A stretch of DNA of 64,000 bases from an uncultured Clostridia bacterium (GTDB lineage Bacteria > Bacillota > DTU025 > MWDF01), in NCBI GenBank assembly GCA_964545975.1, contig CAZJHY010000001.1, positions 24,094 to 88,093 on the forward strand. The letters are read 5' to 3'. A program made the translations under genes and the position numbers. Under the pieces are notes generated by a model that was not told the DNA's origin, searched no databases, and saw nothing but the letters and a program-made list of their open reading frames with translations. Shown piece by piece: positions 11,066-35,758 of this stretch (its first letter is position 1; every line of letters begins with the position of its first letter).

Positions 11066-11713
11066 CTACTTGTTCTGCCCGTAAGTCCTGCCGAGGGTGG
11101 AGACCAATGCCTTCACCTGTTCGTCAGTTAGTGAGGATGCCCTGCCTATTTGCGAGGCGTGTATATAGCACGAGCACATCTTCTCCAGAAGCTCGCACCT
11201 TTCAAGGGCCTTCTCAGGCGTGTCAGCGACGCAGACTGACCCGTGATTGGACATTATTGCTGCATTCTTGCTTCCTAGCGCCTTCGCGACGTTCTTTGCT
11301 AGGTCGTCGCTTCCAGACATAGCATAATCCGCTACCTCTACAGCGCCTCCGAAGCTGAAAGCGCATATATCAGTTATGACCGGAAGAGGCATCCTTGCTA
11401 CGCCAAGGGCTATCGCCATGGGTGAATGAACATGAACGACGGCTTTAACCTCAGGCCTGGCAATGTAGATCTCCCTGTGCAGCATGCTTTCTACCGAGGG
11501 CTTAAGCTTTGATGAGGAATACAGTGTCGCCAGATCCAGCTCTACTATCTGCTCAGGGGAAAGCGCCTCATAAGGTATGCCGCTGGGGGTTATCAGCATC
11601 CCGGTTCCTGATTCATTCCTGCAGCTGACATTCCCTCCGGTGCCTATAGTAAGCCCCATTTCCATCATCTTGATGCCGGTCTGGATAATTCTTCTGTTAA
11701 GCTGCTCGTTCAT
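11066..11713 (-). CDS. class II aldolase/adducin family protein (L-fuculose-1-P aldolase / L-ribulose-5-P 4-epimerase-like)
   Basis: TGIKMMEMGLTIGTGGNVSCR N-terminal motif, HVHSPMAIA metal-His motif. Confidence 0.8.
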   Translation of the reverse strand: MNEQLNRRIIQTGIKMMEMGLTIGTGGNVSCRNESGTGMLITPSGIPYEALSPEQIVELDLATLYSSSKLKPSVESMLHREIYIARPEVKAVVHVHSPMAIALGVARMPLPVITDICAFSFGGAVEVADYAMSGSDDLAKNVAKALGSKNAAIMSNHGSVCVADTPEKALERCELLEKMCSCYIHASQIGRASSLTDEQVKALVSTLGRTYGQNK

Positions 11714-12151
11714 CTTTCTCCTCCATCTGTGGCTGTTGTATTGCCAGTACGAAATTATACAGTCAATTGCATATTAATATAGCACAATAACCTAACCAGG
11801 TGCGAAGGAGCACGCTGTTTTTAATGTGAGTCAAATACATTGCAAAAGCACAGCATAAAAGCGGTATTGCTTGCATCAGCAGGACACTGCTTCCTGAATA
11901 CTGGATTCAGCTTCCTGACGCTTGTCTAGGCAGTTTGATGTATATTTTCCTCCACATAAATGATATTCTATATTAAAGCGTTTCCGGATAGTTGTATATT
12001 ATTGGTACAATCTCCATTAGTATACAATCCAGAAAGGGGTGTTCGGCAGGCAGCTAACCACGGTAGTACCAAAATTACTAGCGACCAATCGCAAGTGGGA
12101 CAAGAAATCAATCTCCAGCGAGAAGTATAAGCAATTAGGGGAGGGAATCTT

Positions 12152-13162
12152 GTGAAGAGAACATTGTTAATCGCGGTTGTACTAGTCATGGCACTAACCA
12201 TCGTAACCGGCACTTTCGCAGCGACTACGCCTCTGTTGGTATCGGGCGGCGGTCTTAAGACGACCACTACCGTCAAGGCCAACTCGAAGTATCTCATCGC
12301 TTGCATCGTTAAGAACTCCACCAATCCTTACATGATCAAGCAGCTTGACGGCTTCAAAGCCGCCGGCGCATTCATGGGCTTCGACGCCGTCGCACTGGCT
12401 CCCGCCAAGGCCGACAACATCGAAGAGCAGGTCAAGATAATCGAAGACCTCATCCAGAAGGGCGTCAAGGGCCTCGTCATCCATCCTTCCGACTCCAACG
12501 GCATAGTCCCGATAGTCGAGAAGGCCATGTCGCTCGGCATCCCCGTGGTCGTAATAGGTACCCCGGCGAATACCGACAAGATATTCTTCCGCACCGGCAT
12601 GGACTATACCGACTCTGGCCGCAAGATCACCGAAGCTGCCATCCAGAAGATGGGCGGCAAGGGCAACGTCATAATACTTGAGGGCCCGCCCCAGGCGATC
12701 AACGCCAAGGAAAGGCTCAACGGCATGCTCGAAACTATAGCCAAGTACCCCGGCGTAAAGGTGCTTGACTCCCAGACCGCAAACTTCAACAGGCTCAACG
12801 CCCTCCAGGTCATGGAGAACCTCCTTCAGAAGCACAAGGACGTGCAGGGAGTCTTCGCGGCCAACGACGAGATGGCCCTCGGCGCGATCCAGGCTCTTGA
12901 AGCCGCCGGCAGGAAGAACGTGGTAGTCTCCGGCGTCGACGGAAGCAAGGACGCCTCGCAGGCGGTCCTCGAAGGCAGGCTCACAGTGACCTCGAATGCA
13001 GACCCCTATTCCAGCTCCTGGTGCGCCGCAGCATACATCGTGAAGTACTTGAACGACGGCACCATGCCGCCCTCCAAGTTCATCCCGTATCCCGCTGAAG
13101 TCGCCATCATCGACAAGAGCAACGTTCAGAACTACATCAACAACGACGCGTGGTGGAAGTAG
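12152..13162 (+). CDS. sugar ABC transporter substrate-binding protein (RbsB/ribose-type PBP family)
   Basis: signal peptide, type I PBP with FAANDEMALGA motif; GTG start after GGGGAGGGAA. Confidence 0.85.
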   Translation: MKRTLLIAVVLVMALTIVTGTFAATTPLLVSGGGLKTTTTVKANSKYLIACIVKNSTNPYMIKQLDGFKAAGAFMGFDAVALAPAKADNIEEQVKIIEDLIQKGVKGLVIHPSDSNGIVPIVEKAMSLGIPVVVIGTPANTDKIFFRTGMDYTDSGRKITEAAIQKMGGKGNVIILEGPPQAINAKERLNGMLETIAKYPGVKVLDSQTANFNRLNALQVMENLLQKHKDVQGVFAANDEMALGAIQALEAAGRKNVVVSGVDGSKDASQAVLEGRLTVTSNADPYSSSWCAAAYIVKYLNDGTMPPSKFIPYPAEVAIIDKSNVQNYINNDAWWK

Positions 13163-13180
13163 TCTCATAGAAGTCCTGCT

Positions 13181-13210
13181 ATGGAGCCCTGTCGCAAGAC
13201 GGGGCTCCAT
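13181..13210 (+). other. GC-rich intercistronic hairpin after SBP gene
   Basis: ATGGAGCCC (loop 12) GGGCTCCAT, 9 bp perfect stem. Confidence 0.5.
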
Positions 13211-13231
13211 GCACCCAAGGGGGCGTTATTT

Positions 13232-14752
13232 TTGGAGATAGTACCTATCCTCGAAGCGAGGAACATCAGCAAGGAGTTCCCGGGCGTAAAGGCGTTGGAT
13301 GAAGTATCCATACAGGTAAGGCCCGGCGAGGTCCATGTACTGATAGGAGAGAACGGGGCCGGAAAGAGCACGCTGTCCAAGATACTCATGGGAGTGTATA
13401 CCAGCGACAAGGGCGAGATCCTGTTCGATGGTAAGCCCGCCCACATTAGGAACCCTCATGACGCAAGGGCATTAGGCATATGCGGTGTCCATCAGGAGTT
13501 CATGCTTGTACCCTGGATGAACGTCGCACAGAACATCTTCATCAACAGAGAGCCCAGGATTTGGCCGGGGCTTCCCTTCATAGACCACAAGAAGATGCAC
13601 GAGGACAGCAGGAAGCTGCTTTCCTCCTTCAACGTGAACATCAACACCAAGCAGCCGGTGAAATACCTGGACACCGCGCTCCAGCAGATGGTGGAGATAG
13701 TAAAGGCGCTATCTACGAACCCCAAGGTCCTGATACTTGACGAACCGACTGCAGTCCTCACGGACAGGGAGGTCAACAGCCTCTTCGCCCATATAGAGGA
13801 GCTGAGAAGCCGAGGGGTTGCGATCATATACATATCGCACAGGCTTCCTGAGATCAGAAGGATAGGCGACAGGGTCACGGTCCTAAGAGACGGGAAGTAT
13901 GTAGCAACGGTTGACATCAAGGACACCCCCGACGAGGAGCTCATCAAGATGATGGTGGGCAGGAGCGTTTCGCAGCTTTATACCAGAAACCGCCAGGTTC
14001 CCGGGAAAGAGGCCCTGAGGCTTGAGAATTTCAGCGTGAAGGGCGGACCGCAGAATGTCGACCTGGTGCTGCACTACGGAGAGATCATTGGGCTTGCGGG
14101 CCTGATTGGTTCAGGGCGCACCGAGCTTGTCAGGGGCATCATGGGAATTGACCAGCAGACAGGCGGTTCCCTTTACATCGATGGCAACAAAGTCACGGTC
14201 GGAAGCCCTGACAAGGCGATAGGACTGGGGCTGGGGCTTCTGCCTGAGGACCGCAAGAGGTATGGCCTCGCCCTTAAGACGAACATCGCCTGGAATACCA
14301 TAATGGCGAGCCTCAAGCGGGAGTTCCCCAAGGGAGTAGTAAGGGAGCGCAAGGTGCGCGACATCGCCCAGGGCTATGTTAAGCAGCTGAAAATCGCCAC
14401 AGACTCGGTATCTAAGGTGGTGGGCTTCCTAAGCGGAGGCAACCAGCAGAAGGTTGTCGTCGCCAAGTGGATCAACACCAAGGCCAAGATCCTCATCTTC
14501 GACGAACCTACAAGGGGCATCGACGTGGGGGCCAAGGCAGAGGTGCACGCCCTCATGGACAAACTGGTGGCCGAAGGAAACGCGATCATAATGATTTCCT
14601 CCGACCTGCCGGAAGTCCTCGGGATGAGCGACCGCGTCTACACGATATTCCAGTGCCGTTCCATGGGGGACTGCTGCTTCCAGGAGGCGAACCAGCAGAG
14701 AATCGGCTCCCTTATGCTGGGAGTGGGGGTGAAGACAGATGCAAACCAGTAA
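13232..14752 (+). CDS. sugar ABC transporter ATP-binding protein with two NBDs (RbsA/MglA-like)
   Basis: two Walker A/signature sets (GENGAGKST; LSGGNQQK); TTG start at 13232 after AAGGGGG; the longer ORF from 13181 is rejected because it overlaps the hairpin. Confidence 0.8.
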   Translation: MEIVPILEARNISKEFPGVKALDEVSIQVRPGEVHVLIGENGAGKSTLSKILMGVYTSDKGEILFDGKPAHIRNPHDARALGICGVHQEFMLVPWMNVAQNIFINREPRIWPGLPFIDHKKMHEDSRKLLSSFNVNINTKQPVKYLDTALQQMVEIVKALSTNPKVLILDEPTAVLTDREVNSLFAHIEELRSRGVAIIYISHRLPEIRRIGDRVTVLRDGKYVATVDIKDTPDEELIKMMVGRSVSQLYTRNRQVPGKEALRLENFSVKGGPQNVDLVLHYGEIIGLAGLIGSGRTELVRGIMGIDQQTGGSLYIDGNKVTVGSPDKAIGLGLGLLPEDRKRYGLALKTNIAWNTIMASLKREFPKGVVRERKVRDIAQGYVKQLKIATDSVSKVVGFLSGGNQQKVVVAKWINTKAKILIFDEPTRGIDVGAKAEVHALMDKLVAEGNAIIMISSDLPEVLGMSDRVYTIFQCRSMGDCCFQEANQQRIGSLMLGVGVKTDANQ

Positions 14753-15704
14753 GCTCATGGGCTTTTTGAGGAAGGTCCCGCCGGCGACATACATCATACT
14801 GCTCATGATAGCCATATACGGCATCGCCGCGCCCGGCTTCTTCACCCTTGGAAACCTCGAGAACGTCGGAAACCAGGCGGCCCCCCTTCTCATCGTCGCC
14901 ATAGGTGTGACCATGGTCATCATGACGGAGGGTACAGACCTTTCGATCGGTTATGTGATGGGCATGGTCGGAGTCGTTGTATCGATTATGCTTAGGGCGA
15001 AAATCTGGATAGGCTGGGCGTTCCTTGCCGGCATCGCGGTAGGGGTGTTCTGCGGCTTCATAAACGGCGTCGCAGTCGCAAAGCTCAAGCTTCCTCCGTT
15101 CATTGCTACGCTTGGTACCGGAAACGTCATATTCGGAATAGGCCTCGTCATAACCGAAGGATACTCCATACAGGCACTTGATCCTGCGCTGCTTTTTCTG
15201 GCAAGCGGCAAGGTGTTCGGAATAAGCATGCCGATACTGATTGCCACGGTGGTCTTCGGGTTATGCTGGGTACTCATGAACTACACGCCGTTCGGGCGCA
15301 ACATAGTCTCTCTCGGAGGCAACTCCGAGGCGCTTAGAGGCGTTGGCCTTAACGTCGGGAAAGCCTCCATATCGGTATACATGATGTGTGGCTTCCTTGC
15401 GGCAATAGGAGGCCTCATAGTGGCGTCAAGGACAGGCTCAGGCTATTCGGCGGCTGCCATGGGATGGGAGTTCGACGCCATCGGAGCCAGTATAATCGGC
15501 GGTACATCCTTCGAGGAGGGCAATGGATCCATAAGCAGGACCGTAATTGGTGTCGCGCTCATATCGATACTCAGAAACGGCCTTAATGTCGTGGGCGTGC
15601 CGAACATGTACCAGTACGCGCTCATCGGCGCCATAGTGCTGACGGCCATAATCCTGGACGTTCGCTTCAGGCAGGCCGCGAAGGGAGGCGTCAAGAGAGT
15701 ATGA
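14739..15704 (+). CDS. sugar ABC transporter permease (RbsC family)
   Basis: multi-TM; overlaps ATPase stop. Confidence 0.8.
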   Translation: MQTSKLMGFLRKVPPATYIILLMIAIYGIAAPGFFTLGNLENVGNQAAPLLIVAIGVTMVIMTEGTDLSIGYVMGMVGVVVSIMLRAKIWIGWAFLAGIAVGVFCGFINGVAVAKLKLPPFIATLGTGNVIFGIGLVITEGYSIQALDPALLFLASGKVFGISMPILIATVVFGLCWVLMNYTPFGRNIVSLGGNSEALRGVGLNVGKASISVYMMCGFLAAIGGLIVASRTGSGYSAAAMGWEFDAIGASIIGGTSFEEGNGSISRTVIGVALISILRNGLNVVGVPNMYQYALIGAIVLTAIILDVRFRQAAKGGVKRV

Positions 15705-16696
15705 ACGAAGGTTCAAGGATGAAGGACACCCCCAAGGCGGTCGCAATCGTAAACGACAGGCTCAAGGCAAGGGAGGCCATAGCTCCCCTCTTCAGGCTCA
15801 CGTTCCTGATAGTCCTCATGATCGCACTTTCCATACTCAGCGAGGACTTCTTCACATGGAGCAACCTAATTAACGTTCTCAGGCAGTCGACTTTCCTGAT
15901 AGTAATCGGCCTCGGGCTCACAGGGGTGCTGCTTACCGGAGGCATCGACCTGTCCGTAGGCGGTGTGCTCGCATTCGTGGGCTGCGCGACTGGACAGATG
16001 ATGAGATCCGGCGTTCCGCTTTATCTTGCAGTGCCAATCGGTCTTCTAATCGGAGCGGGAGTCGGATGCTTCAACGGTTTCATGGTGGGGTACATCAAGC
16101 TTCCTCCGTTTGTGGCCACTTACGGTTCCAAGTGGATATCCGAGGGCATGGCGCTGCTTCTTATGCAGGGGCAGGTCATCTACGGCTTCCCGAGGGTGTA
16201 CCGCTGGATCGGCATCGGCTACATAGGACCCATACCAGTGCCCATCATAATTGCTGCCATCCTTGCGGTAATAATGAACTTCCTGTTCGTGAAGACCGTA
16301 TTCGGCAGGCAGGTATATGCACTGGGCGCCAACAAGGAAGCAGCATTCTACTCGGGCATCAAAGTCAAGAAGAACATCATGGTGGTATACACCCTTGCTG
16401 GCCTCATGGCGGGCATTGCCGGCCTTCTGATGCTTGCAAGGCTTGACGCCGCCGAGGTGAACATGGGAGAGGCCCTGCAGCTGCAGTCCCTCGCCGCGGT
16501 CATCATCGGGGGTGCATCCCTTCGCGGAGGCGAGGGCAGCATATTCGGCACGATAATTGGCGCCATAACCCTTACGCTGGTCGTAAACGGGCTTAACCTG
16601 CTTGGCGTGCGCTCTTTGTGGCACTCAGTGGTGCTCGGCGGCGTCATCCTGGCATCCGTGATAATGGACCTGCGCATGAAGAAGCTGGCGCAATAA
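15701..16696 (+). CDS. sugar ABC transporter permease (RbsC family, second copy)
   Basis: multi-TM paralog of preceding gene, ATGA overlap. Confidence 0.8.
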   Translation: MNEGSRMKDTPKAVAIVNDRLKAREAIAPLFRLTFLIVLMIALSILSEDFFTWSNLINVLRQSTFLIVIGLGLTGVLLTGGIDLSVGGVLAFVGCATGQMMRSGVPLYLAVPIGLLIGAGVGCFNGFMVGYIKLPPFVATYGSKWISEGMALLLMQGQVIYGFPRVYRWIGIGYIGPIPVPIIIAAILAVIMNFLFVKTVFGRQVYALGANKEAAFYSGIKVKKNIMVVYTLAGLMAGIAGLLMLARLDAAEVNMGEALQLQSLAAVIIGGASLRGGEGSIFGTIIGAITLTLVVNGLNLLGVRSLWHSVVLGGVILASVIMDLRMKKLAQ

Positions 16697-16727
16697 GGAT
16701 TAGCAGAAAGAAAAAGGAGGAACACCA

Positions 16728-17537
16728 ATGGCCAACCTTACGATCAGACCCATAAACACCGGTTACGCGGAAACCTACAAGAAGCAGTACCAGTACCATC
16801 ATTCTACCCACAAGTACCACAACGTCGACGACGGAAAGCTTCTTCTGCCCTGCATGGCATTCCTTATCGAGGGCGGAGACAAGCTCGTGCTGGTAGACAC
16901 CGGCATGTCCAACACCGAGATAGCCAACAAGTATCATCATCCGGGTTCGTACCAGCCTGACGGCTTTGCGATACATGAGCAGCTGGCGAAGCTGGGCATC
17001 AAGTGCGAGGACATCGACATTGTCATCTTCACGCACATGCACTGGGACCACATGCACAACATGGAGAAGTTCGTAAACGCCAGGTTCATCGCCCACAAGA
17101 AGGAATGGGAGTTCTGCCAGAACCCCATCCCGCTGTACTACAAATCATACGAGCATCCCAAGCTCGGCATAAAGGCTCCCTTCACTGGCCTTAAGATCGA
17201 GACCGTAGAGGGCGAGCAGGAGATAGTCCCCGGCATAAGGGTGTTCGAGAGCTTCGGGCATTCGCCGGGCCACATGTCCGTGGAAGTCGACTGCGAGGAC
17301 GGATCCTACATCCTCTGCGGCGATGCGGTATTCATCTACGACAACCTTAAGCCCGTGCCGGACATGTTCTATGAGATTACTCCCCCGGCCAGGTATGCCA
17401 ACATCGTCGAGTGCTGGAACAGCATAGTCGAGATGAAGCATAGGGCCAAGGAGCAGCGCTTCATACTGCCCTCCCATGAGCCTGAGATAGAGGAGCTCGC
17501 GAAGAAGTACGGAACTTTCCCGATACCCAAGAAGTAA
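16728..17537 (+). CDS. MBL-fold metallo-hydrolase (AiiA-like lactonase family)
   Basis: HxHxDH zinc motif in FTHMHWDHMHN; RBS AAAAGGAGG. Confidence 0.75.
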   Translation: MANLTIRPINTGYAETYKKQYQYHHSTHKYHNVDDGKLLLPCMAFLIEGGDKLVLVDTGMSNTEIANKYHHPGSYQPDGFAIHEQLAKLGIKCEDIDIVIFTHMHWDHMHNMEKFVNARFIAHKKEWEFCQNPIPLYYKSYEHPKLGIKAPFTGLKIETVEGEQEIVPGIRVFESFGHSPGHMSVEVDCEDGSYILCGDAVFIYDNLKPVPDMFYEITPPARYANIVECWNSIVEMKHRAKEQRFILPSHEPEIEELAKKYGTFPIPKK

Positions 17538-17619
17538 CATCACACCGATTGGGGGTGCGGCCGGGAGGCAGGTCCAAGGGGGCGCGGGCCTCCGAAGACA
17601 GCCAACCCGGCCTTGTCAT

Positions 17620-18843
17620 ATGAAGACTATCGCAGTGATAACCTCGCTGGACACGAAGGGGAAAGAGACCCTCTATATAAAGGATGCGATCGAGAGGTTC
17701 GGCTCGAAGGCTCTCATCATAGACGTAGGGGTCAAGGAGCCGCCATATTTCACGCCTGATATCGCAAGGCACGAGGTGGCCGCCGCCGCCGGCATCGACT
17801 GGGATACGGTGAAGGACAAGGAGAAAAGGGTGAGGATAAGCACCATGACCTCAGGCCTTGAGGTGCTTATACCCAAGCTATATGCCGAGGGGAAGCTTTC
17901 GGCCGTGTTCTCGATGGGAGGCCTTCAGAACACAACGATGGGAACATCGGCGATGAAGACCCTGCCGCTCGGGGTGCCTAAGCTCATGCTTTCCACGATG
18001 GCGTCCAGCAACAGGCCTTTCGGTCCGTTCGTGGGAACCAAGGACATGACCCTCATGCACTCGGTGGGCGACATCCTAGGGGTAAACCCCGTCACCAAGG
18101 CCGTGATGGATAACGCCGTCGGAGCCATCGTGGGGATGGCGGAGCACGCCGGAAACAGGGTGCAGAAAACTGACAGGATCCTTGTGGGTGCCACTATGCT
18201 CGGCGTAACGAACGACGGAGTGAGCCGCGCGGTATCCTACCTCGAGGAGGCAGGCTACGACGTGGTCACCTTCCATGCGAACGGTGCGGGAGGACCGGCC
18301 ATGGAGGAGCTCATAGGACAGGACACGATAGACGCCGCGATGGATCTTACGCTGCATGAGATAGACGCTGAATTCTTCGGGGGGCACTGTTCGGGGGCGA
18401 CCAACAGGCTCCTTATGGCCGCCGAGAAGGGGATACCCCAGGTTGTTTCGCTTGGTGCCTCCGACGTCATAGACTATGAGGTCGTGGACCTCGACAAGGT
18501 AAGGGAGTATGGAAGGCGCAAGTTCGTCTATCAGCACCCCACCATCCAGCACATAAAGCTCATAGAGGAAGAGGCGCACAAGGTCGGGACGGTAATCGGG
18601 GAGAGGCTCTCAAAGGCCAAGGGTCCCCTAACCCTCGTCATACCTAGGGGAGGCTTCCACCAGAGCAGCTACAAAGGCGGTCCCATATGGGATCCTGCCA
18701 TCGACGAGATAATCATAGGACACATACTAAGCAGGATTGCGCCTTCCACAAGGGTGGTAGAGACCGCAGCCCATATCAACGAGCCCGCCTTCAGCAGGGT
18801 GGCGGCCGATGAGATGATTAAGCTTCTGAAGGCCATGCGCTAA
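17620..18843 (+). CDS. UPF0261 (Tm-1-like N-terminal domain) family protein
   Basis: N-terminal MKTIAVITSLDTKGKE pattern and ~400 aa length typical of UPF0261; product by recollection of family only. Confidence 0.5.
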   Translation: MKTIAVITSLDTKGKETLYIKDAIERFGSKALIIDVGVKEPPYFTPDIARHEVAAAAGIDWDTVKDKEKRVRISTMTSGLEVLIPKLYAEGKLSAVFSMGGLQNTTMGTSAMKTLPLGVPKLMLSTMASSNRPFGPFVGTKDMTLMHSVGDILGVNPVTKAVMDNAVGAIVGMAEHAGNRVQKTDRILVGATMLGVTNDGVSRAVSYLEEAGYDVVTFHANGAGGPAMEELIGQDTIDAAMDLTLHEIDAEFFGGHCSGATNRLLMAAEKGIPQVVSLGASDVIDYEVVDLDKVREYGRRKFVYQHPTIQHIKLIEEEAHKVGTVIGERLSKAKGPLTLVIPRGGFHQSSYKGGPIWDPAIDEIIIGHILSRIAPSTRVVETAAHINEPAFSRVAADEMIKLLKAMR

Positions 18844-18875
18844 GCAGGGCCAGAAGCCTCACAAGGAGGATTCCG

Positions 18876-20132
18876 ATGTTCTACGGACTGCCTTTCGACA
18901 ACCCCGAGTCCATTTATGGCAGGGATTACGTTCTGGGCACCTATTTCGTGACCGGCGTCACAGGAGACGATGCGCTTAATAAGCTGGGCATGTTTGCAGT
19001 CGGCCAGTCCACCGGCACGTGGATGCCGGTGCCCGGCATAACCAGGCAGATGGTGGAGGATCATCAGGGAAGAGTCGTCGGATGCTATCCGGTGCCCGCC
19101 CAGGAGCCCGGCGCCTACGTTCTTAGGGTGGCGTTTCCCTACAGCAACATAGGCGGGTCCATCTCGATGCTGCTTACCACGCTTGCGGGAAACGACGCTT
19201 CGACTGCGCTGTGCGCGAAGCTCATAGACGTGGAGCTTGTCGGCAAGGCGAAGTCGGCCTTCCACGGTCCGCACTTCGGAATAGACGGGGTGAGGAAGCT
19301 CACGGGAGTCTACGACAGGCCCATAGTCATGAATATGATCAAGCCTTGCACGGGCTTTCCGGCTACGGCAGGGGCGGAGTTCTTCTACGCGTCCGGATCA
19401 GGCGGCGTAGACATAATAAAAGATGACGAGCTTATGGGCAACACCAGCTTCAATTCCGTCGCCGACAGGGTGAGGGAGTATGGTAAGGCTCAAGCGAGAA
19501 TCGGAGGAGAGAGGGGCAAGGCCCCTATATACCTTCCCAATGTGACCGACAGGCACGATAAAATGCGCGACAACATCAAGGCGGCGATAGACGGCGGAGC
19601 GAAGGGCGTCATGGTCAACTTCGTCTTCACCGGACTCGACAGCCTTGCCGCGCTTACATCGGAGTTCGGCGACAAGGTGATGTTCCTCGCTCATGCGGCA
19701 GGAGTTGGCGTCATGACCGGTTATCCGCAGGGCTTAAGCACCTCGCTTCTTCTAGGAAGGCTCGGAAGGCTGGCAGGCGCGGACGCGGTGGTCACCCTTT
19801 ATCCTCTCGGCATGGGAGGAGACGGCTTCCAGGAGCTTCAGATGACGGTGCAGAAGCACAGGCTGCCTCTGGGAGATGTCAAGCAAGCCTTGACCGTGGT
19901 CGGAGGAGGCGTCACGCCGCTTACCGTACCGTTTGCGGTGAAGAGCTTCGGCAAGGACATAATCATCGCCGTTGGCGGTGGCATCCAGGGCCACCCGGAC
20001 GGGGCGACGGCAGGCGCAAAGGCCATGATGGCTGCGGTGGATGCGACCATGAAGGGCGTAAGCCTGGAAGACGCGGTTAAGGACAGCCCGGAGCTCGGAA
20101 GGGCGATAACCAGATGGGGCAAGAAGGCTTAA
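18876..20132 (+). CDS. RuBisCO-like protein (form IV RuBisCO large-subunit homolog)
   Basis: GGVDIIKDDE aligns with RuBisCO GGLDFTKDDE (carbamylated Lys and Mg ligands retained); IKP (K175 equivalent) present; no small subunit or PRK nearby; RBS AAGGAGGA. Confidence 0.8.
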   Translation: MFYGLPFDNPESIYGRDYVLGTYFVTGVTGDDALNKLGMFAVGQSTGTWMPVPGITRQMVEDHQGRVVGCYPVPAQEPGAYVLRVAFPYSNIGGSISMLLTTLAGNDASTALCAKLIDVELVGKAKSAFHGPHFGIDGVRKLTGVYDRPIVMNMIKPCTGFPATAGAEFFYASGSGGVDIIKDDELMGNTSFNSVADRVREYGKAQARIGGERGKAPIYLPNVTDRHDKMRDNIKAAIDGGAKGVMVNFVFTGLDSLAALTSEFGDKVMFLAHAAGVGVMTGYPQGLSTSLLLGRLGRLAGADAVVTLYPLGMGGDGFQELQMTVQKHRLPLGDVKQALTVVGGGVTPLTVPFAVKSFGKDIIIAVGGGIQGHPDGATAGAKAMMAAVDATMKGVSLEDAVKDSPELGRAITRWGKKA

Positions 20133-20169
20133 GGGCCGCCCGAATGATGACCGTATGGAGGTAAAGCAG

Positions 20170-20793: not shown

Positions 20794-20822
20794 GACGAAG
20801 ACAATCCGAACGGAGTGATCAT

Positions 20823-22075: not shown

Positions 22076-22104
22076 GGCAAGGCTTACGAAGGCGGTGTGA
22101 TGCA

Positions 22105-22776: not shown

Positions 22777-22798
22777 TCCTAAAAAGGAGGACGCACCA

Positions 22799-24271: not shown

Positions 24272-24275
24272 TGAT

Positions 24276-25673: not shown

Positions 25674-25685
25674 CCGAATGGACGT

Positions 25686-26513: not shown

Positions 26514-26598
26514 ATCCTATTCATATACTGAAATACTTTGAGCTTCGTCCTATATTTGAATCGGAGGCCATTAATCTTCCCGCATAAGGAGGGATATC

Positions 26599-27513: not shown

Positions 27514-27602
27514 GCTCGAAAGACCTGATCGAATAGAATTGGCAAGTTGCTTCGAAGCATAGTGGGAAGCAGATAAAAAGAAACGAAGGAGGAAGACCTG
27601 TC

Positions 27603-28577
27603 ATGAAGAAGACTTCCATGCGCCTGATGCTGGCAGCAGCCCTCGTGATCTCGATCATGTTCTCGTCCGTGGCAGCCGCACCTAAGTTCCTTACCATATC
27701 CACCGGCCCTGTGGGCGGGGAATGGTACATACTTGGCGGAATACTCTCCGAGCTCCTGAAACCGGTGCTTCCTGACACCAAGGTAACCGCAACAACCGGC
27801 GGCGGCGTCGCAAACCTCAGCACAGTGGCCTCCGGCAAGAGCGACATAGGCACCACGCAGGATCAGCTCCTGTATGATGCCCGCAATGGCACGACTGACT
27901 TCACCTCAGGAAAGCTCACCAACGTCGTCGCCATCGGATACCTGGCAGACATCTACATGAGCGTATTCCTCGTGCGCGAGGACTACAACATAACATCTCT
28001 TGATGACCTTGCAGCCAGGAAGATCGGCATGCGCATACTAACCGCCCCCACGGGCTCGACGCCTTCAAGGGCCGCGGTCAGGATGCTTGAGGAATACGGA
28101 GTGACCCCCGATCTCCTTAAGTCATGGGGGGGAAGCTTGAGCTACGTCGCCTATGCGGACGCAAGCTCGATGATCAGGGACGGCCATGCCGACGCCTATG
28201 TGGGCCCCATCATGCCCGCCATCATAGAGCTCACCGTCTCCCGCAAGATGAAGATGCTGCCGGTGAAAGAGACCGTCCTTAAGGCCATGACTGCCAAGTA
28301 CGCATATGGCAGGGCCACAATACCCGCTGGAGCATATGACTTCGTGAAGGCCAACACGCCCGTCATGACCGAGTCGCCCGTCCTCATCGTCAGGGATGAC
28401 GTCGACGAGCAGACCGTATACCTCATAACCAAGGCGATAGCCGAGAACCCTGCGAAGATCCAGGGCGCCGGCGCGACCTATGCAAAGTTCGACCCCAAGA
28501 TGATGCCCAACATATCGGGCGGTCCCATACATCCCGGAGCCCTCAGGTACTATAAGGAGAAGGGCTGGGTCAAGTAG
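27603..28577 (+). CDS. TAXI family TRAP transporter solute-binding protein
   Basis: signal peptide; TAXI-type SBP pattern (ISTGPVGGEWYILGG). Confidence 0.8.
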   Translation: MKKTSMRLMLAAALVISIMFSSVAAAPKFLTISTGPVGGEWYILGGILSELLKPVLPDTKVTATTGGGVANLSTVASGKSDIGTTQDQLLYDARNGTTDFTSGKLTNVVAIGYLADIYMSVFLVREDYNITSLDDLAARKIGMRILTAPTGSTPSRAAVRMLEEYGVTPDLLKSWGGSLSYVAYADASSMIRDGHADAYVGPIMPAIIELTVSRKMKMLPVKETVLKAMTAKYAYGRATIPAGAYDFVKANTPVMTESPVLIVRDDVDEQTVYLITKAIAENPAKIQGAGATYAKFDPKMMPNISGGPIHPGALRYYKEKGWVK

Positions 28578-28594
28578 GCTTCCTTAAAGCAGCA

Positions 28595-28617
28595 GAGGGG
28601 CCGGAAACCGGCCCCTC
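28595..28617 (+). other. GC-rich intercistronic hairpin after SBP gene
   Basis: GAGGGGCCGG AAA CCGGCCCCTC, 10-bp perfect stem, no U-tail. Confidence 0.55.
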
Positions 28618-28640
28618 CAAGACTTATGGGGGTATATGCC

Positions 28641-30506
28641 ATGAAGGACAACAAGATACTTAAGTCGGTCCTGGCGGTGCTTTCGCTCGCCTTTCTGTGC
28701 TTTCATCTCTATACAGCGGTCTACGGCACTTTCATCCCTCAGCTTCAGCGGCCGCTCCACCTGGCGTTCGCCGTCGTAATCGGCTTCCTGGCATATCCCA
28801 TGTTCCAGAAGAGGGACTACAAGTGGCTCGACATAATCCTTGCTCTGATATCGGCAGGGGCTTACGGGTACATTGCCGTGAAAGCCCAGGAGATATCGAT
28901 GAGGCAGACAATGGTGAGCCCCCTTTCGGCTCTTGACCTTATAGTAGGCGCAGTGATCATTGTGCTGCTTCTGGAGCTTACGAGAAGGGCCGTCGGCTGG
29001 ATAATGAGCTTCGTTGCCATAGTATTCCTCATCTATGCCGTGGCGGGCCCTTACTTGCCGGATCTTATCTCCCACAGGGGATTTCCCATCGCGGACCTCA
29101 TCGACTATCAGGTATTCGGCCTGGACGGCATCTATTCCATACCGCTTAGCATCTCTGCGACATACATCGTCCTGTTCATCATCCTGGGCACCTTGATGGA
29201 GTATACCGGGGCGGGCGATGTGATAATGGACATCGGCAAGGCAGTGGCGGGAGGATTCAGAGGCGGCCCCGCAAAGGTCGCGACTATATCCTCAGCCCTG
29301 TTCGGATCGATTTCAGGAAGCGCCGCTGCCAATGTATATGCAACAGGCACCTTCACCATCCCTATGATGAAGAAGATAGGATACAGCCCAGCGTTCTCTG
29401 GGGCCGTCGAGGCTGTCGCATCGACAGGAGGCCAAATAATGCCCCCCGTAATGGGCGCTGCGGCCTTCCTCATGGCTGAGCTTCTGGGAATGCCCTACAT
29501 CGAGATATGCAAAGTGGCCCTCATCCCGGCCATACTCTACTATGTATCCCTGTTCATAGTCCTGGATTTCGAGGCGGCAAGGATAGGAATCAAGGGGCTT
29601 GACAGGAAGGACCTGCCTAAGTGGAAGGACATCCTTCCCAGGCTCTACCTGATGCTTCCCCTGATAGTCCTGGTAGCGATACTTATGATGGGCTATACGC
29701 CGTTCCGCTCCGCTTATTATGCGATAGTGCTCACCTTCGCGCTCAGCTTCTTCAGCAAGAAGACGCGGTTTACAGTAGCGACCTTCATCGACGCAATGGT
29801 AGTGTCGGCGAAGCGCACAGTGATGATAGCGGCAGCCTGCGGGGCGGCGGGCATCGTAATAGGGGTGATAACGCTGACCGGAGTGGGGCTGTCCCTCTCC
29901 AGCGTGATAATCTCCCTGTCAGGCGGAGTGAAGATACTGGCGCTTATCATGGTGATGATATCTGCGATAATCATGGGGATGGGAACCCCCACAACAGTCG
30001 CCTACATCGTTGTATCGACCCTTGCTGTGCCTATCATGAAGGACCTGGGGTACGCAGCCCTTCCCTCGCACCTTTTCGTATTCTACTTTGCTGTGCTCTC
30101 AATGATAACCCCGCCTGTTGCGCTTGCTGCCTATGCGGCGGCTGACATCGCCAAGGAGAGCTCCATGAAAATCGGCTTCACCGCGATGAGGATAGGGGCA
30201 ATCGTGTTCACCATACCGTTCATCTTCCTTCTGGACCCGCCACTTCTCATGCAGGGTTCATGGGGGATGATAGCCTTCAGGTTCGTGATGACGGTGTTCT
30301 CGGCTGTGGCCTTCGCCGGAGCGGCGACAGGATGGTTCGGTAAGAGCATCAATATCATAGGAAGGCTGCTCATGCTAGCGATATTCGGACTGATAATCTC
30401 GCCTGAGACGGTGACTACATTCATCGGTCTGGGCCTTCTCTGTGGGATGTGGTTTCTTAAGGGTCTGTTTGAAGTAAAGCGCGTGGCTAATGCGGGACGC
30501 GCTTAA
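28641..30506 (+). CDS. TRAP transporter fused permease (TAXI-associated DctQM-like)
   Basis: ~620 aa polytopic membrane protein downstream of TAXI SBP; start at ATG 28641 after GGGGGT. Confidence 0.8.
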   Translation: MKDNKILKSVLAVLSLAFLCFHLYTAVYGTFIPQLQRPLHLAFAVVIGFLAYPMFQKRDYKWLDIILALISAGAYGYIAVKAQEISMRQTMVSPLSALDLIVGAVIIVLLLELTRRAVGWIMSFVAIVFLIYAVAGPYLPDLISHRGFPIADLIDYQVFGLDGIYSIPLSISATYIVLFIILGTLMEYTGAGDVIMDIGKAVAGGFRGGPAKVATISSALFGSISGSAAANVYATGTFTIPMMKKIGYSPAFSGAVEAVASTGGQIMPPVMGAAAFLMAELLGMPYIEICKVALIPAILYYVSLFIVLDFEAARIGIKGLDRKDLPKWKDILPRLYLMLPLIVLVAILMMGYTPFRSAYYAIVLTFALSFFSKKTRFTVATFIDAMVVSAKRTVMIAAACGAAGIVIGVITLTGVGLSLSSVIISLSGGVKILALIMVMISAIIMGMGTPTTVAYIVVSTLAVPIMKDLGYAALPSHLFVFYFAVLSMITPPVALAAYAAADIAKESSMKIGFTAMRIGAIVFTIPFIFLLDPPLLMQGSWGMIAFRFVMTVFSAVAFAGAATGWFGKSINIIGRLLMLAIFGLIISPETVTTFIGLGLLCGMWFLKGLFEVKRVANAGRA

Positions 30507-30520
30507 GACGGAGGTTACAT

Positions 30521-30907
30521 ATGCCTGATCTTAGAATGCTTGACGGGGCCATTGCAGGTGTCCTTCATCTGGAGGAGCACTCGGACCTCTTCTCTGAGCT
30601 GAGGGAGTTCCTCACCGAAGGAGGATGGACCGAGGTGGTCATCACAGGATGCGCCGGTTCCCTTGAGAAAGCGGTGGCAAATTACCCCAGGGACATGACG
30701 CTTCCTCCCATAGTGGAGCATGTGGTCATGGAAGGGGCATACGAGGTGTGCACCCTGAACGGGAACGTAACCTGGTACGAGGGGAAACCCAAGGTGCACA
30801 TACACGGATCGTTTGCGGAGAAGGGCACCAAGGTCTACGGAGGGGCCATCGGGGACGGCACCAGGATATTCAAGTCTGCGGACCTGTTCGTCCTCTGCCA
30901 TAAGTAG
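30521..30907 (+). CDS. PPC/DUF296 domain protein
   Basis: ~128 aa; pattern of PPC (plants and prokaryotes conserved) domain; RBS ACGGAGGT. Confidence 0.5.
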   Translation: MPDLRMLDGAIAGVLHLEEHSDLFSELREFLTEGGWTEVVITGCAGSLEKAVANYPRDMTLPPIVEHVVMEGAYEVCTLNGNVTWYEGKPKVHIHGSFAEKGTKVYGGAIGDGTRIFKSADLFVLCHK

Positions 30908-30912
30908 TCGCA

Positions 30913-30941
30913 GCAGCCCGCCTCGACCAGAGGCGGGCTGC
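30913..30941 (+). terminator. stem-loop downstream of PPC gene (weak terminator)
   Basis: GCAGCCCGCCT (loop) AGGCGGGCTGC 11-bp stem; no clear U-tail. Confidence 0.4.
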
Positions 30942-31079
30942 CTCACTGGCAAAACTTTACATAGTGCAATATATATGTTTTAATACTGTTGTCGGTCCGC
31001 CCTCAGGACCGAATTCCATCCTATTGTCATCGATTTGCCGCCAAGGCTTTGTTTACGTAGTTTGAGGGGTGTATACGAA

Positions 31080-31618: not shown

Positions 31619-31637
31619 GGGTACTGCTTGAACAGTT

Positions 31638-31665
31638 AGGAGGGCGCAAGCCCTCCTTTATTCTT
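31638..31665 (+). terminator. rho-independent terminator
   Basis: AGGAGGGC GCAA GCCCTCCT followed by TTATTCTT. Confidence 0.7.
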
Positions 31666-31772
31666 ATGGTATATTCCTGCGCTTTTTGGTATTAATTATT
31701 TCATATGGATATCGGGAAAAGGTAGCGTCCTTCGGCAGGAACTAGCCTCGGTTATCTTCAGGGAGGGAACAT

Positions 31773-32711: not shown

Positions 32712-32895
32712 GGTCGGTAAGGCTGACATTGCCGTCCGCCTGATGCATCATTTTGCCTGGGGAAACCTGCACCCCTGGCGTTCTATCTTTCTGCGCCAGA
32801 TTCATAATATTATAAGGTTATCAGGGGAAATGTAAACAAGTGCTTCAGTAGTAAGGTCCAGTTGCAAGCCTTGAAGAAGGAAAGCGGTGGAGACG

Positions 32896-34758
32896 ATGAG
32901 AGAAACCATTGTTATCGGTGCAGGGCTGTCGGGTCTGGCAGCAGCAAGCCTTTTAGCCAAAAGGGGACTTAAGGTTACCGTCGTGGAGCACGCATTCAAG
33001 CCGGGCGGCTCATGCGGCATCTTCAAAAGGGACGGAGCGATATTCGACCAAGGCGCCGCGATGATGTACGGTTTCGGCAAAAGGGGCTTCAACTCCCATC
33101 GCTTCATATTCAACTGCCTTGAAGAACCTATAGACGTGATTAGAAACGAAGCGCTCTACGACGTCCATTACCAAGGGCACAGGATCAGGTTCCATAGGGA
33201 CATCGACAGGTACATCGATGAGCTGACAAAGGTGTTTCCGAACGAGAAGGAGAACCTCAGGCGCTTCTACGCAGACATGAAGGTGCTCTACAATGACGTT
33301 ATAGCAAACGAACCCAACTTCACGACTCCGGACAGGACCGACCGTATAGGGGCTATAAAGCAGGTGCTTAAGCACCCGGTCTCCTTCATCAAGTTCCTTA
33401 CATACCTGAACAGGAGCACTGAGAGCGTCCTCAGGAGCTACTTCAAGGATGGGGCGATACTGGCCTACTTCAACAAGCTCACTTCGACATACTGCTATAC
33501 TGATGTATCCGAGACACCTGCTGTAATGGCCGCTGTGATGTTCGTTGACAACCATATGGGCGGAAGCTTCTACCCCAAAGGCTCCACCATATTCGTTCCA
33601 GGTAAGCTAGAGAAGTCGATAGAGGAGCATGGGGGCACCATGCTTTACGAGAAGACTGTAGAGAGGATATTGGTGGAGAACAACAGGGCTACGGGCGTCC
33701 TGCTTGATGACGGCACCCGGCTAATGGCCGACGCAGTCATTTACTCAGGCACTGTATGGAACCTCTATGGCAAGCTTCTTGAGGATGCGCCGGTACCTGA
33801 TACCAGGAGGAAGTGGGCGCAGGGCCTCAAAGCCTCTTATCCGAGCGTTCTTCTGTACACCATCGTGAAAAAGGATGCCATCCCGGAAGGCACCGGCCCC
33901 ATCACTCTTTTCTCGAACGACTCGGACCGCCTCGACGATAACGAGGTCACTACCTATATCTTCAGCATCGACGACCCTTCCATATGCCCTCCGGACTGCC
34001 ATGCGGTGACTGTCATAGGGCCTACCTACAAGAAGTGGCCCGAATTCACCGAGCGCTATCAGTCCTCAGAAGAGTACAGGAGGCTCAAGTCCGAGGAGGA
34101 AGAAAGGCTTCTTGCCCTTCTTGAAAGCAAGTTCCCCGGCTTCAGCTCGAAGGTGGTGCACAAGGAGGTGGCAACGCCCCTTAGCATAGAAAGGTATACC
34201 ATGAAGAACCGCGGAAGCGTGGCAGGCCCGCTGCAGTCCATGGGGCAGCACATGTTCAGGAGGCTTCATATCAATTCTGAGTTCACAGGGCTGTACTATT
34301 GCGGGGAATCGACGATCATGGGCACCGGGACTCCGACTGTCACAGTCTCTGGGATCAGCGCGGCGAACGCCCTTCTTAAGGAGCTTGGCATGGAGGAGTT
34401 CAAATATCGCGAGGGGATGAAGGATTACGTGCGCGAGCATGCTCCCGGAGCAGTCGTCGTACAGGACGAAGAGCCGAAGGGCGATATAACCGAGCTGGCT
34501 AGGCTTGCGTGGAGATGCGAATTCTGCGAGCATCCGGCCTGTATGGCTGGCATCGGGCTTGATATCCGCGGCATCAACAGGAGGCTTGCTGTAGGCAACG
34601 TCTGCGGAGCAAACAAGCTGGCAAAAGCCTCCCCGCAAGCAGATGACGCCCTTGAAGCTGCCGAGAGAAGGTGCGTGCTCGGCAGGAGGGGCGAGCCGGT
34701 CGCAATCAAGAGGATCATAGGCATGCTTACGAGAACAGAAGACCCGGATTGTATGTGA
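32896..34758 (+). CDS. FAD-dependent oxidoreductase, phytoene desaturase (CrtI)/amine-oxidase-like, with Cys-rich C-terminal extension
   Basis: Rossmann GAGLSGLAAA...VVE; C-terminal CEFCEHPAC...C...C tail. Confidence 0.7.
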   Translation: MRETIVIGAGLSGLAAASLLAKRGLKVTVVEHAFKPGGSCGIFKRDGAIFDQGAAMMYGFGKRGFNSHRFIFNCLEEPIDVIRNEALYDVHYQGHRIRFHRDIDRYIDELTKVFPNEKENLRRFYADMKVLYNDVIANEPNFTTPDRTDRIGAIKQVLKHPVSFIKFLTYLNRSTESVLRSYFKDGAILAYFNKLTSTYCYTDVSETPAVMAAVMFVDNHMGGSFYPKGSTIFVPGKLEKSIEEHGGTMLYEKTVERILVENNRATGVLLDDGTRLMADAVIYSGTVWNLYGKLLEDAPVPDTRRKWAQGLKASYPSVLLYTIVKKDAIPEGTGPITLFSNDSDRLDDNEVTTYIFSIDDPSICPPDCHAVTVIGPTYKKWPEFTERYQSSEEYRRLKSEEEERLLALLESKFPGFSSKVVHKEVATPLSIERYTMKNRGSVAGPLQSMGQHMFRRLHINSEFTGLYYCGESTIMGTGTPTVTVSGISAANALLKELGMEEFKYREGMKDYVREHAPGAVVVQDEEPKGDITELARLAWRCEFCEHPACMAGIGLDIRGINRRLAVGNVCGANKLAKASPQADDALEAAERRCVLGRRGEPVAIKRIIGMLTRTEDPDCM

Positions 34759-35101
34759 AAATATTCACAGCTAAGCGAAGGAATCCGCCCAAGAGCCATA
34801 CAAGCAAATAAGAGTCACAATACTGCCTGAGGCCTTTCCTTAGCTCGAACAAGGACGGAACGGGCATACTACGCTCCGTATATGGCGATTTCACTGCTAC
34901 TGCAACTATCATTGCTAAGTAGACCTGGAAACAGCGGCAACCGGAGAGGCGACCAATCAGTAAGCCATGGCTTACCGGAACCGCCGGAGCCAACTGCCCC
35001 AATTTGAAAATGGTATAATCCTCAGTAATGATGCGACCTGGCGGGATGCCGGGTCGTTCGGGCGCCGAGGGCAGAAAAGCTTCGCGCCCGGGAGGGATAC
35101 C

Positions 35102-35758
35102 ATGGCAGCGGACCCAAGGCAGGAGATAGTTTCGACAGGGCAGTACCTTCTTTCCCATCAGCTCGCATGGGGAAGCACCGGCAACATCAGCGCGCGCTTC
35201 GACGACAGCTCATTTTTCATAAGCGCATCAGGTGCGAGCCTCGGGACCCTTACGACCGAGAGCCTCTCTTTGTGCAAGGTCAACGGCGAGATGGTCACCC
35301 ACAACGTAACCCCGTCGAAAGAGCATAGGGTGCACGCCGCAGTCTATATAAACGATCCGAAGGCGCGGGCCGTGATACACACTTCGCCTCCTTATGTGTC
35401 GCTGATAGCGGCAGCCAGGAATTTCGGGGATTTCACCGTGGAGCATTTCATCGAAGCGGCTGTCATGCTGCAGAAGGTAGCATGGATAACGTTCATGCTG
35501 CCCGGAAGCGCTGAGATAATTGAGGCTGTTGGTAAAGCAGCAAAGGAATCCGATGTGCTCATGATGCAGAACCACGGCATCATGGTGACAGGCGAGAGCA
35601 TGAGGAAGGCGCTCAACAAGGTGGACACTATGGAGTTCCTTTGCCGCATGGTTATAACCGCCAGGTCCGCCGGGATAGACCTCAGGGCGCTTTCTAGGGA
35701 AGAGCTGGAGATGCTTCTAAGCGATTCGCGAGCAAGGAACCTAAACTACGGCTCCTGA
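35102..35758 (+). CDS. class II aldolase/adducin family protein
   Basis: AWGSTGNISAR, HTSPPYV motifs; start at ATG 35102. Confidence 0.7.
   Translation: MAADPRQEIVSTGQYLLSHQLAWGSTGNISARFDDSSFFISASGASLGTLTTESLSLCKVNGEMVTHNVTPSKEHRVHAAVYINDPKARAVIHTSPPYVSLIAAARNFGDFTVEHFIEAAVMLQKVAWITFMLPGSAEIIEAVGKAAKESDVLMMQNHGIMVTGESMRKALNKVDTMEFLCRMVITARSAGIDLRALSREELEMLLSDSRARNLNYGS

Follow-up and report, generated by a model that had tools for sequence, protein, structure and literature searches.

A class II aldolase-fold clade tied to a RuBisCO-like protein in a conserved, putatively acid-sugar-degrading operon

Few RuBisCO-like proteins (RLPs) have a known function (PMC10176493). The RLPs of apiose catabolism decarboxylate or transcarboxylate 3-oxo-isoapionate-4-phosphate (PMC6302742), the chemistry of LerI, DerI and EryC (PMC10733421) and of EryH and EryI (PMC11508834) has been described, and MarK, a UPF0261 protein, forms ADP, the first activity reported for this domain (PMC12624787). 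Here we analyzed 64,000 nucleotides of contig CAZJHY010000001.1 from an uncultured Clostridia bacterium (hereafter, the window), in which an RLP gene is found together with four genes of the class II aldolase fold, named A1 to A4 in their order along the window (Table 1). In the pathway of Carter et al. 2018, the RLP product L-erythrulose-1-phosphate is reportedly converted to erythrose-4-phosphate via isomerases of the triose-phosphate isomerase (TIM) and RpiB families, and paralogs of both families are also encoded beside our RLP. Overall, we found that A2 is the only paralog evolutionarily tied to the RLP. We lean, by a narrow margin of confidence, toward a model in which both belong to one conserved catabolic operon (12152-25673, + strand) with a lactonase-kinase-A2-RLP-isomerase route, to which further genes have been added.

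The tie between A2 and the RLP was observed in gene neighborhoods. We scanned loci anchored on the RLP in one genome per species, labeling neighbors by homology to the window proteins. Among loci with enough flanking sequence, in the 28 whose RLP is at least 47% identical to that of the window, A2 was present in 27, the UPF0261 gene in 28, the metallo-beta-lactamase (MBL)-fold gene in 24, RpiB in 22 and the TIM paralog in 23, while A3 was found in 2 and A1 in 1. The 29 loci with RLPs below 47% identity harbored A2 (10), UPF0261 (14), MBL (12), RpiB (20) and TIM (21), and neither A3 nor A1. No examined locus had A4 beside the RLP. Loci with a close RLP come from Bacillota, Acidobacteriota, Chloroflexota and Spirochaetota, and in all four phyla we found the recurrent order of substrate-binding protein (SBP), ATP-binding cassette (ABC) ATPase, two permeases, MBL, UPF0261, RLP, RpiB, TIM and A2. 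A recurrent association of this fold with RLPs, suggested by an earlier reading of the window from its letters (the original prediction), is borne out by the A2 ortholog beside 27/28 of the close RLPs and by some Aldolase_II gene near 15/29 of the distant ones, including a different subtype in clusters linked to a phosphotransferase system (PTS). The accompanying idea that the paralogs make or consume the RLP substrate is supported for A2, which probably makes it, and not for A1, A3 and A4, which are not evolutionarily tied to the RLP.

Anchoring on A2 gave a second view. In this metagenome scan, counted over loci with enough flanking sequence (n = 21), MBL and UPF0261 were each present in 21/21, RLP in 13/21 and RpiB/TIM in 15/21; 8 loci carried RpiB/TIM only, 6 RLP only and 7, mostly from peat or soil, carried both. 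Three architectures were distinguished: (i) MBL-UPF0261-RLP-RpiB-TIM-A2, the type of the window, from peat and soil; (ii) ABC-MBL-UPF0261-A2-GntR-RLP, lacking both RpiB and TIM; and (iii) RpiB-TIM-KdgT-MBL-UPF0261-A2-GntR, where no RLP lies within 10 kb and a class II fructose-bisphosphate (FBP) aldolase adjoins RpiB-TIM. The active-site motifs of A2 are unchanged in all three. Because these motifs are kept and MBL and UPF0261 are present in 21/21 loci, the invariant unit is the lactonase, the kinase and A2. Moreover, since clusters without RLP keep the A2 motifs, the A2 substrate cannot be the RLP product; the most plausible substrate of A2 is the direct product of the kinase, which would place A2 before the RLP. 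RLPs of the window's type also occur without A2, beside UPF0261 and TIM/RpiB paralogs. OiaC and OtnC are partly interchangeable enediolate enzymes in known pathways, and by analogy the same may hold for the RLP and A2. In gut A2 clusters (L166-L170, L141 and L149 versus L137, L144, L153 and L160), RLP and RpiB plus TIM look mutually exclusive, which suggests that they represent alternative downstream branches in gut variants.

Judged by its sequence, A2 is a distinct clade of the class II aldolase fold, recovered with 96-98% bootstrap support in neighbor-joining trees of 26-33 representatives. Across 49 A2 orthologs the Glu and three His metal ligands are kept, and the S-S-E/D of FucA and AraD is replaced by T/S-R-E. 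The Arg thus placed at FucA position 72 (Gln in 3/49) takes the position of a phosphate-binding Ser, where OtnC has Lys. The Tyr113 of FucA is missing, the column of AraD Asp120 is variable, the C-terminal tail bearing FucA Tyr209 or AraD Tyr229 is absent, and a conserved T-x-H-x-x-L-K motif is particular to the clade. A fold search with the AlphaFold2 model of A2 (pLDDT 95) did not discriminate between DrdA, YgbL/OtnC and AraD, all matched at E ~1e-14. The most likely reaction, by analogy, would be an OtnC-type beta-keto-acid decarboxylation, with an AraD-type epimerization as the alternative. Decarboxylation is favored by the basic side chain at position 72, by a C-terminus truncated as in OtnC and by the fact that A2 is the sole candidate to act between kinase and isomerases in architecture (iii), and epimerization by the neighbor-joining tree. 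OtnC/YgbL and the window paralogs share the fold and the site of Glu plus three His, as well as the basic residue (Lys in OtnC and A4, Arg in A2); like A2, OtnC/YgbL has a short C-terminus without the catalytic Tyr and acts right after an acid-sugar kinase. They differ in that A2 (85 bits, its second-best NCBIfam match) and A4 (116 bits) remain far from the OtnC cut-off of 250, and in that A4 has lost the second His. The genomic context also differs, with no OtnK, OtnI or LtnD neighbors among the Pfam-annotated open reading frames (ORFs) between 8.9 and 38 kb. AraD/UlaF is the nearest characterized clade to A2, with a common mid-domain insertion and T-x-H motif, yet A2 scores only 79-80 bits against the respective cut-offs of 257-389 and has Arg in place of Ser75. 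As for the proposed grouping of OtnC and OiaC as aldolase-fold decarboxylases, it is correct for OtnC, whereas OiaC is an RLP (PMC6302742).

By score and residue tests, the RLP is predicted to be neither MtnW nor OiaX. Its best NCBIfam match was MtnW NF007095 (266 bits, cut-off 409); scores were 220 bits with TIGR03332, also MtnW (cut-off 514), and 128 bits with NF042437, OiaX (cut-off 700); the best PDB matches were MtnW/YkrW-type proteins. Equivalents of RuBisCO K175, K201, D203, E204, H294 and N123 are kept, the last within the GNDAST motif of the family, with Cys at K177 and Ala at R295. The catalytic Lys98 of MtnW, numbered as in G. kaustophilus, corresponds to Asn106, an invariant residue of the RLP family. 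Also invariant is the motif NMIKPCTG (window; L067, L073, L090), in which C158 occupies the RuBisCO Lys177 position and whose equivalent reads KPALG in OiaX and KGVIG in MtnW. RLPs of this K-P-C type look like a distinct family.

Several RLP clusters of other composition were also seen. In an Erysipelotrichaceae locus (L073, 3517-13337), a PTS regulator/EIIA, a UlaA/GatC-family EIIC, RpiB, a TIM paralog and the RLP are followed by a 209-aa protein without Pfam match, an Aldolase_II gene of another subtype and a HAD phosphatase; this cluster has neither kinase nor lactonase. Clostridium magnum DSM 2767 (L067, 8649-19162) harbors DeoR, RLP, Amidohydro_2, a PEP-hydrolase-like TIM barrel, UPF0261, DUF1097, MBL, a TIM paralog, RpiB and transketolase, and no Aldolase_II gene. 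On plasmid pOANT04 of Brucella anthropi (L172, 1-10095), an RLP is found with mtnK, mtnA, a split transketolase and a 'bifunctional aldolase/short-chain dehydrogenase', which is another pairing of an RLP with an aldolase-fold protein, of a different type. It was considered as a candidate for the published hamamelose cluster.

Upstream of the RLP, the best NCBIfam and PDB matches of the MBL-fold protein were lactonases of the acyl-homoserine lactone (AHL) or 4-pyridoxolactonase type, all below cut-off. A UlaG-like lactonase was ruled out, as the protein is unrelated to UlaG beyond the metal motif. The UPF0261 protein contains PF06792 and PF23189 and matched PDB entry 9MPY at 153 bits. This entry is deposited only as 'UPF0261 domain-containing protein', and from the Lys at its residue 16 we take it to be MarK E16K. 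The native Lys13 of the window protein aligns with that residue, a Lys that in MarK had to be engineered. Position 16 of MarK has been equated with the ATP-contacting Lys20 of Tm-1 (PMC12624787). Given a kinase family (PMC12624787) and a native Lys at the site of the ATP alpha-phosphate, the UPF0261 protein is a putative kinase. We found no conserved dehydrogenase in 48 related loci, where the sole recurrent extra gene encodes a GntR/FCD regulator (36/48; the window has a Crp/Fnr-type regulator instead, kept in L007 at 74% identity) and where AOR, 2-hydroxyacid dehydrogenase and transketolase genes are sporadic. Because no dehydrogenase is conserved, the route from a lactone to a tetrose phosphate plus CO2 would be redox-neutral, and its substrate would consequently be either already at the oxidation level of a keto-aldonate or ascorbate, or a C-carboxy-branched sugar.

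Downstream, the RpiB-family protein passes the generic RpiB subfamily of NCBIfam and falls short of DerI (151 bits, cut-off 240) and of the rpiB equivalog (124 bits, cut-off 139). The TIM paralog keeps the catalytic N, K, H and E, with DGLFIGRTAW in loop 8 and WAIGIHG in loop 6, where TpiA of E. coli has GGASL and WAIGTGK, respectively. The loop-8 pattern was present in 40/55 cluster TIMs compared, giving the signature DGLF(I/V)GR(S/A/T)AW plus WAIG(V/I)xG. Its consensus (DGLFIGRSAW, WAIGVNG) is found in the TIM of the oiaX cluster on Rhizobium etli p42f (L176, 8989-9792), which is 49% identical to ours; the RpiB proteins of the two clusters are 44% identical. Although the paralog just passes the triose-phosphate isomerase equivalog (296 bits, cut-off 293), the loop signature, used as a proxy, suggests that it is LerI-like and not a standard triose-phosphate isomerase. 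Because this signature is common to the oiaX-cluster TIM, the exit of the pathway may, by analogy, be the conversion of a tetrulose phosphate to erythrose-4-phosphate. The class II FBP aldolase of architecture (iii) and the transketolases in several loci fit erythrose-4-phosphate assimilation. We also noted 308 plasmid records that match the TIM paralog at E <= 1e-20, including 163 from Rhizobium; the paralog is probably widely mis-annotated as tpiA.

The R. etli cluster, with its oiaX RLP, DUF1537 (four-carbon-acid-sugar) kinase, TIM, RpiB, ribose-type ABC system and Gfo/Idh/MocA dehydrogenase, allows a direct comparison with the D-apiose/D-apionate clusters. Common to both loci are the ribose-type importer, a kinase next to the RLP, the TIM paralog with RpiB and a presumed exit from erythrulose phosphate to erythrose-4-phosphate. 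In contrast, the kinase is DUF1537 in R. etli and UPF0261 in the window, and the RLPs are only 29% identical. The Gfo/Idh/MocA dehydrogenase and a gene with a phosphogluconate-dehydrogenase C-domain, which we take to encode an oxidoisomerase, have no homologs in the window, nor has the DUF1537 kinase (by tblastn), while the MBL lactonase and A2 are extra. The cluster is best filed as a variant of known RLP-containing acid-sugar pathways, and in the literature searched we found no published description of a cluster of RLP, A2, UPF0261 and lactonase.

What we observed are gene identities, synteny, residue patterns and the TIM signature; from these we infer in which order the steps occur, what reactions they are and which class of substrate enters. 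In the slightly favored model, the ribose-type ABC system would import a furanose-like sugar-acid lactone, the AHL-lactonase-like MBL hydrolase would open it and UPF0261 would phosphorylate the resulting acid with ATP. A2 would then act on a phosphorylated, carboxylate-bearing keto-sugar via a metal-bound enediolate. The RLP would perform a second enediolate step, a decarboxylation by analogy with the apiose RLPs or possibly a tetrulose-phosphate epimerization or 1,3-shift, and the LerI-like TIM and DerI-like RpiB would turn erythrulose phosphate into erythrose-4-phosphate. The A3-FGGY-PGM genes and the divergent A1 would be modules acquired only in this lineage. Beyond this general scheme, we tentatively propose, as a possibility to which we give less than even weight, that MBL, UPF0261 and the Arg-bearing A2 form the front end of an undescribed redox-neutral route by which anaerobes of peat, soil and gut turn a plant-derived lactone of a keto- or C-carboxy-branched sugar acid into erythrose-4-phosphate, with this front end joined to the K-P-C RLP and/or to the LerI-/DerI-like isomerases. 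Candidate substrates would be an ascorbate-type lactone or the aceric acid of rhamnogalacturonan-II; to the best of our knowledge, no catabolic route for aceric acid is known.

Every functional assignment of an RLP to date has brought new enediolate chemistry to light, and the RLP described here represents a large family (Cys at RuBisCO Lys177) from at least four phyla in soil and gut. If the proposal is true, the reactions of A2 and of the RLP would each be new to their superfamilies, and a carbohydrate substrate would be a first for UPF0261, a family with a single catalytic activity on record (2025, aromatic substrates). The three natural architectures offer a built-in comparison for the order of steps, and the carriers in culture include Hydrogenispora ethanolica, with the full cluster (L089), C. 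magnum, Petroclostridium sp. X23 and Lactonifactor longoviformis DSM 17459. In practical terms, the analysis corrects an annotation and provides a target for enzyme discovery.

A number of points weigh against the favored model. The activities of all operon components are predictions, and 'lactonase' is the nearest characterized activity of an MBL protein whose scores are far below the family cut-offs. In the neighbor-joining trees, AraD/UlaF is the sister of the A2 clade at 62-79%, versus 2% for A2 with OtnC; with the tree nearer to AraD/UlaF, the decarboxylase reading rests on a few residues and on the logic of the clusters. If A2 and the RLP were both decarboxylases they would be redundant, so one of them must act differently. 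The architecture counts include near-identical and related contigs and are not independent, and the clusters without RLP might carry one elsewhere in the genome. Finally, the comparison takes the R. etli cluster to be of the oxidative D-apiose type reported by Carter et al. 2018, with LerI- and DerI-like functions presumed for its TIM and RpiB.

The placement of A2 next to AraD/UlaF, together with the database label of its homologs as L-ribulose-5-phosphate 4-epimerase, is also where a different route would begin. The lactone would be L-ascorbate or a close analog, MBL and UPF0261 would yield 3-keto-L-gulonate-6-phosphate, the RLP would decarboxylate this to L-xylulose-5-phosphate and A2, as a 4-epimerase, would produce D-ribulose-5-phosphate, with RpiB a true ribose-5-phosphate isomerase and TIM a helper triose-phosphate isomerase. 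Such a route would be redox-neutral like ascorbate fermentation, and it agrees with the UlaA/GatC-family PTS EIIC in related RLP clusters, the transketolase in several loci and the occurrence of clusters in both gut and plant-litter habitats. The proteins themselves speak against it, however: A2 has Glu for Asp76, a variable Asp120, no Tyr229 tail and Arg for the phosphate-binding Ser, the MBL protein is not related to UlaG, the TIM loops are those of the apiose-cluster TIM and point to tetrulose phosphates over trioses, and the RLP has lost the equivalents of R295 and H327, the two residues that bind the distal phosphate. We therefore regard the ascorbate-type route as unlikely.

The best matches of the RLP evoke methionine salvage, and the original prediction had drawn this analogy from MtnB to MtnW. 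Here the paralogs would dehydrate their substrate to a 2,3-diketo-1-phosphate and the RLP would tautomerize it as an enolase. In Bacillus, mtnB shares an operon with mtnW, with only mtnX between them, and in the window, too, an aldolase-fold enzyme (A2) probably feeds a YkrW-branch RLP. The analogy did not survive closer comparison and is largely refuted already, which leaves it barely credible. The window harbors no homolog of MtnK, MtnA, MtnX or MtnD at E <= 1e-3, the RLP remains well below the MtnW cut-off with Asn at Lys98, and in their place the operon encodes a sugar ABC importer, a lactonase and paralogs of TIM and RpiB. Nor is any paralog MtnB-like: all four score 66-77 bits for TIGR03328 (MtnB, cut-off 137), none groups with MtnB in the trees (A2 in 2% of bootstraps) and Bacillus MtnB has no match to A2 at E <= 1e-3. 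On the opposite view, the paralogs are ordinary aldolases or epimerases of independent sugar operons that lie near the RLP by chance. This agrees with A4 being in its own conserved three-gene module, with A1 being oppositely oriented and shared only with the two closest relatives, and with the absence of A3-FGGY-PGM from most RLP clusters. It is contradicted for A2, which is beside the RLP at 27/28 loci from four phyla in a tightly packed operon, and A3 is embedded in that operon with gaps of 22-29 nt, so that mere coincidence is improbable as a general explanation.

With regard to the aldolase fold as a whole, we found four Aldolase_II (PF00596) genes in the window (Pfam E 6e-48 to 5e-36) and not the five in 25 kb initially counted. 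A tblastn search of the whole 64-kb window with the four proteins detected no fifth paralog, the next matches having E > 0.03, and all other large ORFs between 8.9 and 38 kb were assigned by Pfam to families other than PF00596. The set is nonetheless dense, as had been claimed: E. coli K-12 has about six PF00596 genes in 4.6 Mb, five of which were encountered in this analysis, giving about 0.03 expected per 25 kb, and by this rough yardstick the density is far above expectation. Three of the genes can be said to flank the RLP only loosely. A2 starts 37 nt past the RLP stop and A3 lies 2 kb beyond A2 in the same tightly packed operon, but A1 is 7.2 kb upstream of the RLP on the opposite strand, divergent from the first operon gene. 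A4 is 15 kb downstream of the RLP in an unrelated module.

The four proteins share 18-32% pairwise identity and appear to be ancient paralogs and not recent local duplicates; the best explanation is that four subfamilies were gathered by operon assembly. Family membership was judged by the curated equivalog cut-offs of NCBIfam, and no paralog reached those for FucA, AraD, MtnB, OtnC, RhaD or ribulose-1-phosphate aldolase. Scores for FucA were 141 (A1), 130 (A3), 87 (A4) and 69 (A2) with NF005302 (cut-off 264) and 127, 75, 67 and 37, in the same order, with TIGR01086 (cut-off 400). All four had at most 79 bits with TIGR00760 (AraD, cut-off 389), and with NF043034 (OtnC) A1 and A3 scored 102 and 98, between A4 and A2. 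In the trees, none was placed tightly with FucA, AraD or OtnC, so the common clustering with FucA/AraD that would have spoken against diversified specificities was not seen. Metal ligands and acid/base positions were also aligned. The fourth ligand is Glu in all four, versus Asp76 in AraD, and the FucA set Glu73/His92/His94/His155 is complete in A1, A2 and A3, while A4 has Ser at 94. The FucA Tyr113 column holds Asp in A1, Met in A2 and Pro beside a Tyr in A3, and the C-terminal Tyr209 is kept in A1 and A3 and missing in A2. Diversified specificities are supported by the four subfamilies, none of which reaches a curated threshold.

A1 and A3 resemble FucA and DrdA in the S-x-E motif, three His and C-terminal Tyr, and A3 (S-S-E) has a sugar kinase as its partner, just as FucA has FucK. 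They differ in that both are below all FucA cut-offs and lack any fuc or drd operon context. The best PDB matches were FucA 7X78 for A1 (118 bits) and 6BTD, a 5-deoxyribose-pathway aldolase, for A3 (108 bits). An A1 ortholog in the same position occurs only in the relative loci L007 and L001, whereas A3 orthologs, always together with the FGGY kinase and PGM, are limited to four loci (L001, L002/L005 and L007). The best explanation is that A3, with FGGY and PGM, and A1 are lineage-specific add-ons, putatively ketose-1-phosphate aldolases of the FucA type. A1 is probably monocistronic. In L001, a relative of 80% identity, the A1 ortholog (2071-2822) is split into ORFs of 117 and 91 aa, which reflects either a frameshift or pseudogene, or an assembly error.

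A4 is, as far as its sequence tells, a long-branch relative of OtnC in a separate module. Its best matches are 6VOQ (YgbL) and NF043034, and it has the S-K-E motif of OtnC. The A4 family comprises about ten clusters in a set of 5.8 billion proteins, followed by a gap down to about 30% identity, and the second His ligand is missing throughout the family (H-T-S/A-P). In both loci with visible flanks, the window (32887-37152) and L174 (7914-12078), the order is FAD oxidase-A4-MFS, and the FAD amine-oxidase-like neighbor has about 620-635 aa.

The features are collected in Table 1. Between the MBL and PGM genes the operon is tightly packed, with intergenic distances of -4 to 82 nt. The start codon of A2 is backed by homolog length (207 aa) and a GGAGG 6 nt 5' of the ATG, that of A4 by a uniform homolog length of 218 aa, and the ATG of RpiB is preceded by GGAG. 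The ABC importer is conserved in synteny across related loci. The nearest solved structures of its SBP are ribose-binding proteins (2IOY, 168 bits), and the PDB comparison gave only such relatives and no ligand-specific match. The best NCBIfam match of the FGGY kinase was XylB (194 bits, cut-off 380).

Table 1. Coordinates of the genes discussed, by position in the window.
Feature	Position	Strand	Family or basis
A1, FucA-like class II aldolase fold	11066-11713	-	PF00596, 163 bits
Ribose-type (CUT2) SBP	12152-13162	+	Peripla_BP_4
ABC ATPase	13181-14752	+	ABC_tran x2
Permeases	14739-15704, 15701-16696	+	BPD_transp_2 x2
MBL-fold hydrolase, putative lactonase	16728-17537	+	Lactamase_B
UPF0261 protein, putative ATP-dependent kinase	17620-18843	+	Both UPF0261 domains
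RLP (form IV)	18876-20132	+	RuBisCO_large
A2, class II aldolase fold, 'T-R-E' clade	20170-20793	+	PF00596
RpiB/LacAB-family isomerase, DerI-like	20823-21284	+	LacAB_rpiB
TIM-family paralog, LerI-like	21281-22075	+	Catalytic residues and loop motifs
A3, FucA/DrdA-like aldolase	22105-22776	+	PF00596
FGGY-family sugar kinase	22799-24271	+	Pfam
PGM/PMM-family phosphomutase	24276-25673	+	Pfam
Crp/Fnr-type regulator, convergent with operon end	25686-26372	-	cNMP_binding and HTH_Crp_2
FAD amine-oxidase-like protein	32887-34758	+	Pfam
A4, class II aldolase fold, OtnC relative	35102-35758	+	PF00596
MFS transporter	35857-37152	+	Pfam

A scan for promoters and terminators gave counts at background, and the only strong promoter-like site, 11037-11010(-), which lies just past A1 on the strand of A1, serves the glutathione-peroxidase (GPx)-MarR genes and not the operon. 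No Rfam match that could hint at the ligand through a riboswitch or other RNA was found in 8000-38500. The divergent spacer between A1 and the SBP gene (11714-12151, 438 bp) contains an AT-rich inverted repeat, TTGTATA-N22-TATACAA, at about 11995-12030. Two DHDPS-family genes bracket the locus, one at 8972-9868 and one within 26599-30952. After the second come a TAXI-type TRAP transporter (an NMT1_3 SBP and a fused 626-aa DctM) and a PCC-domain protein, and this stretch is probably an independent acid-sugar or keto-acid module.

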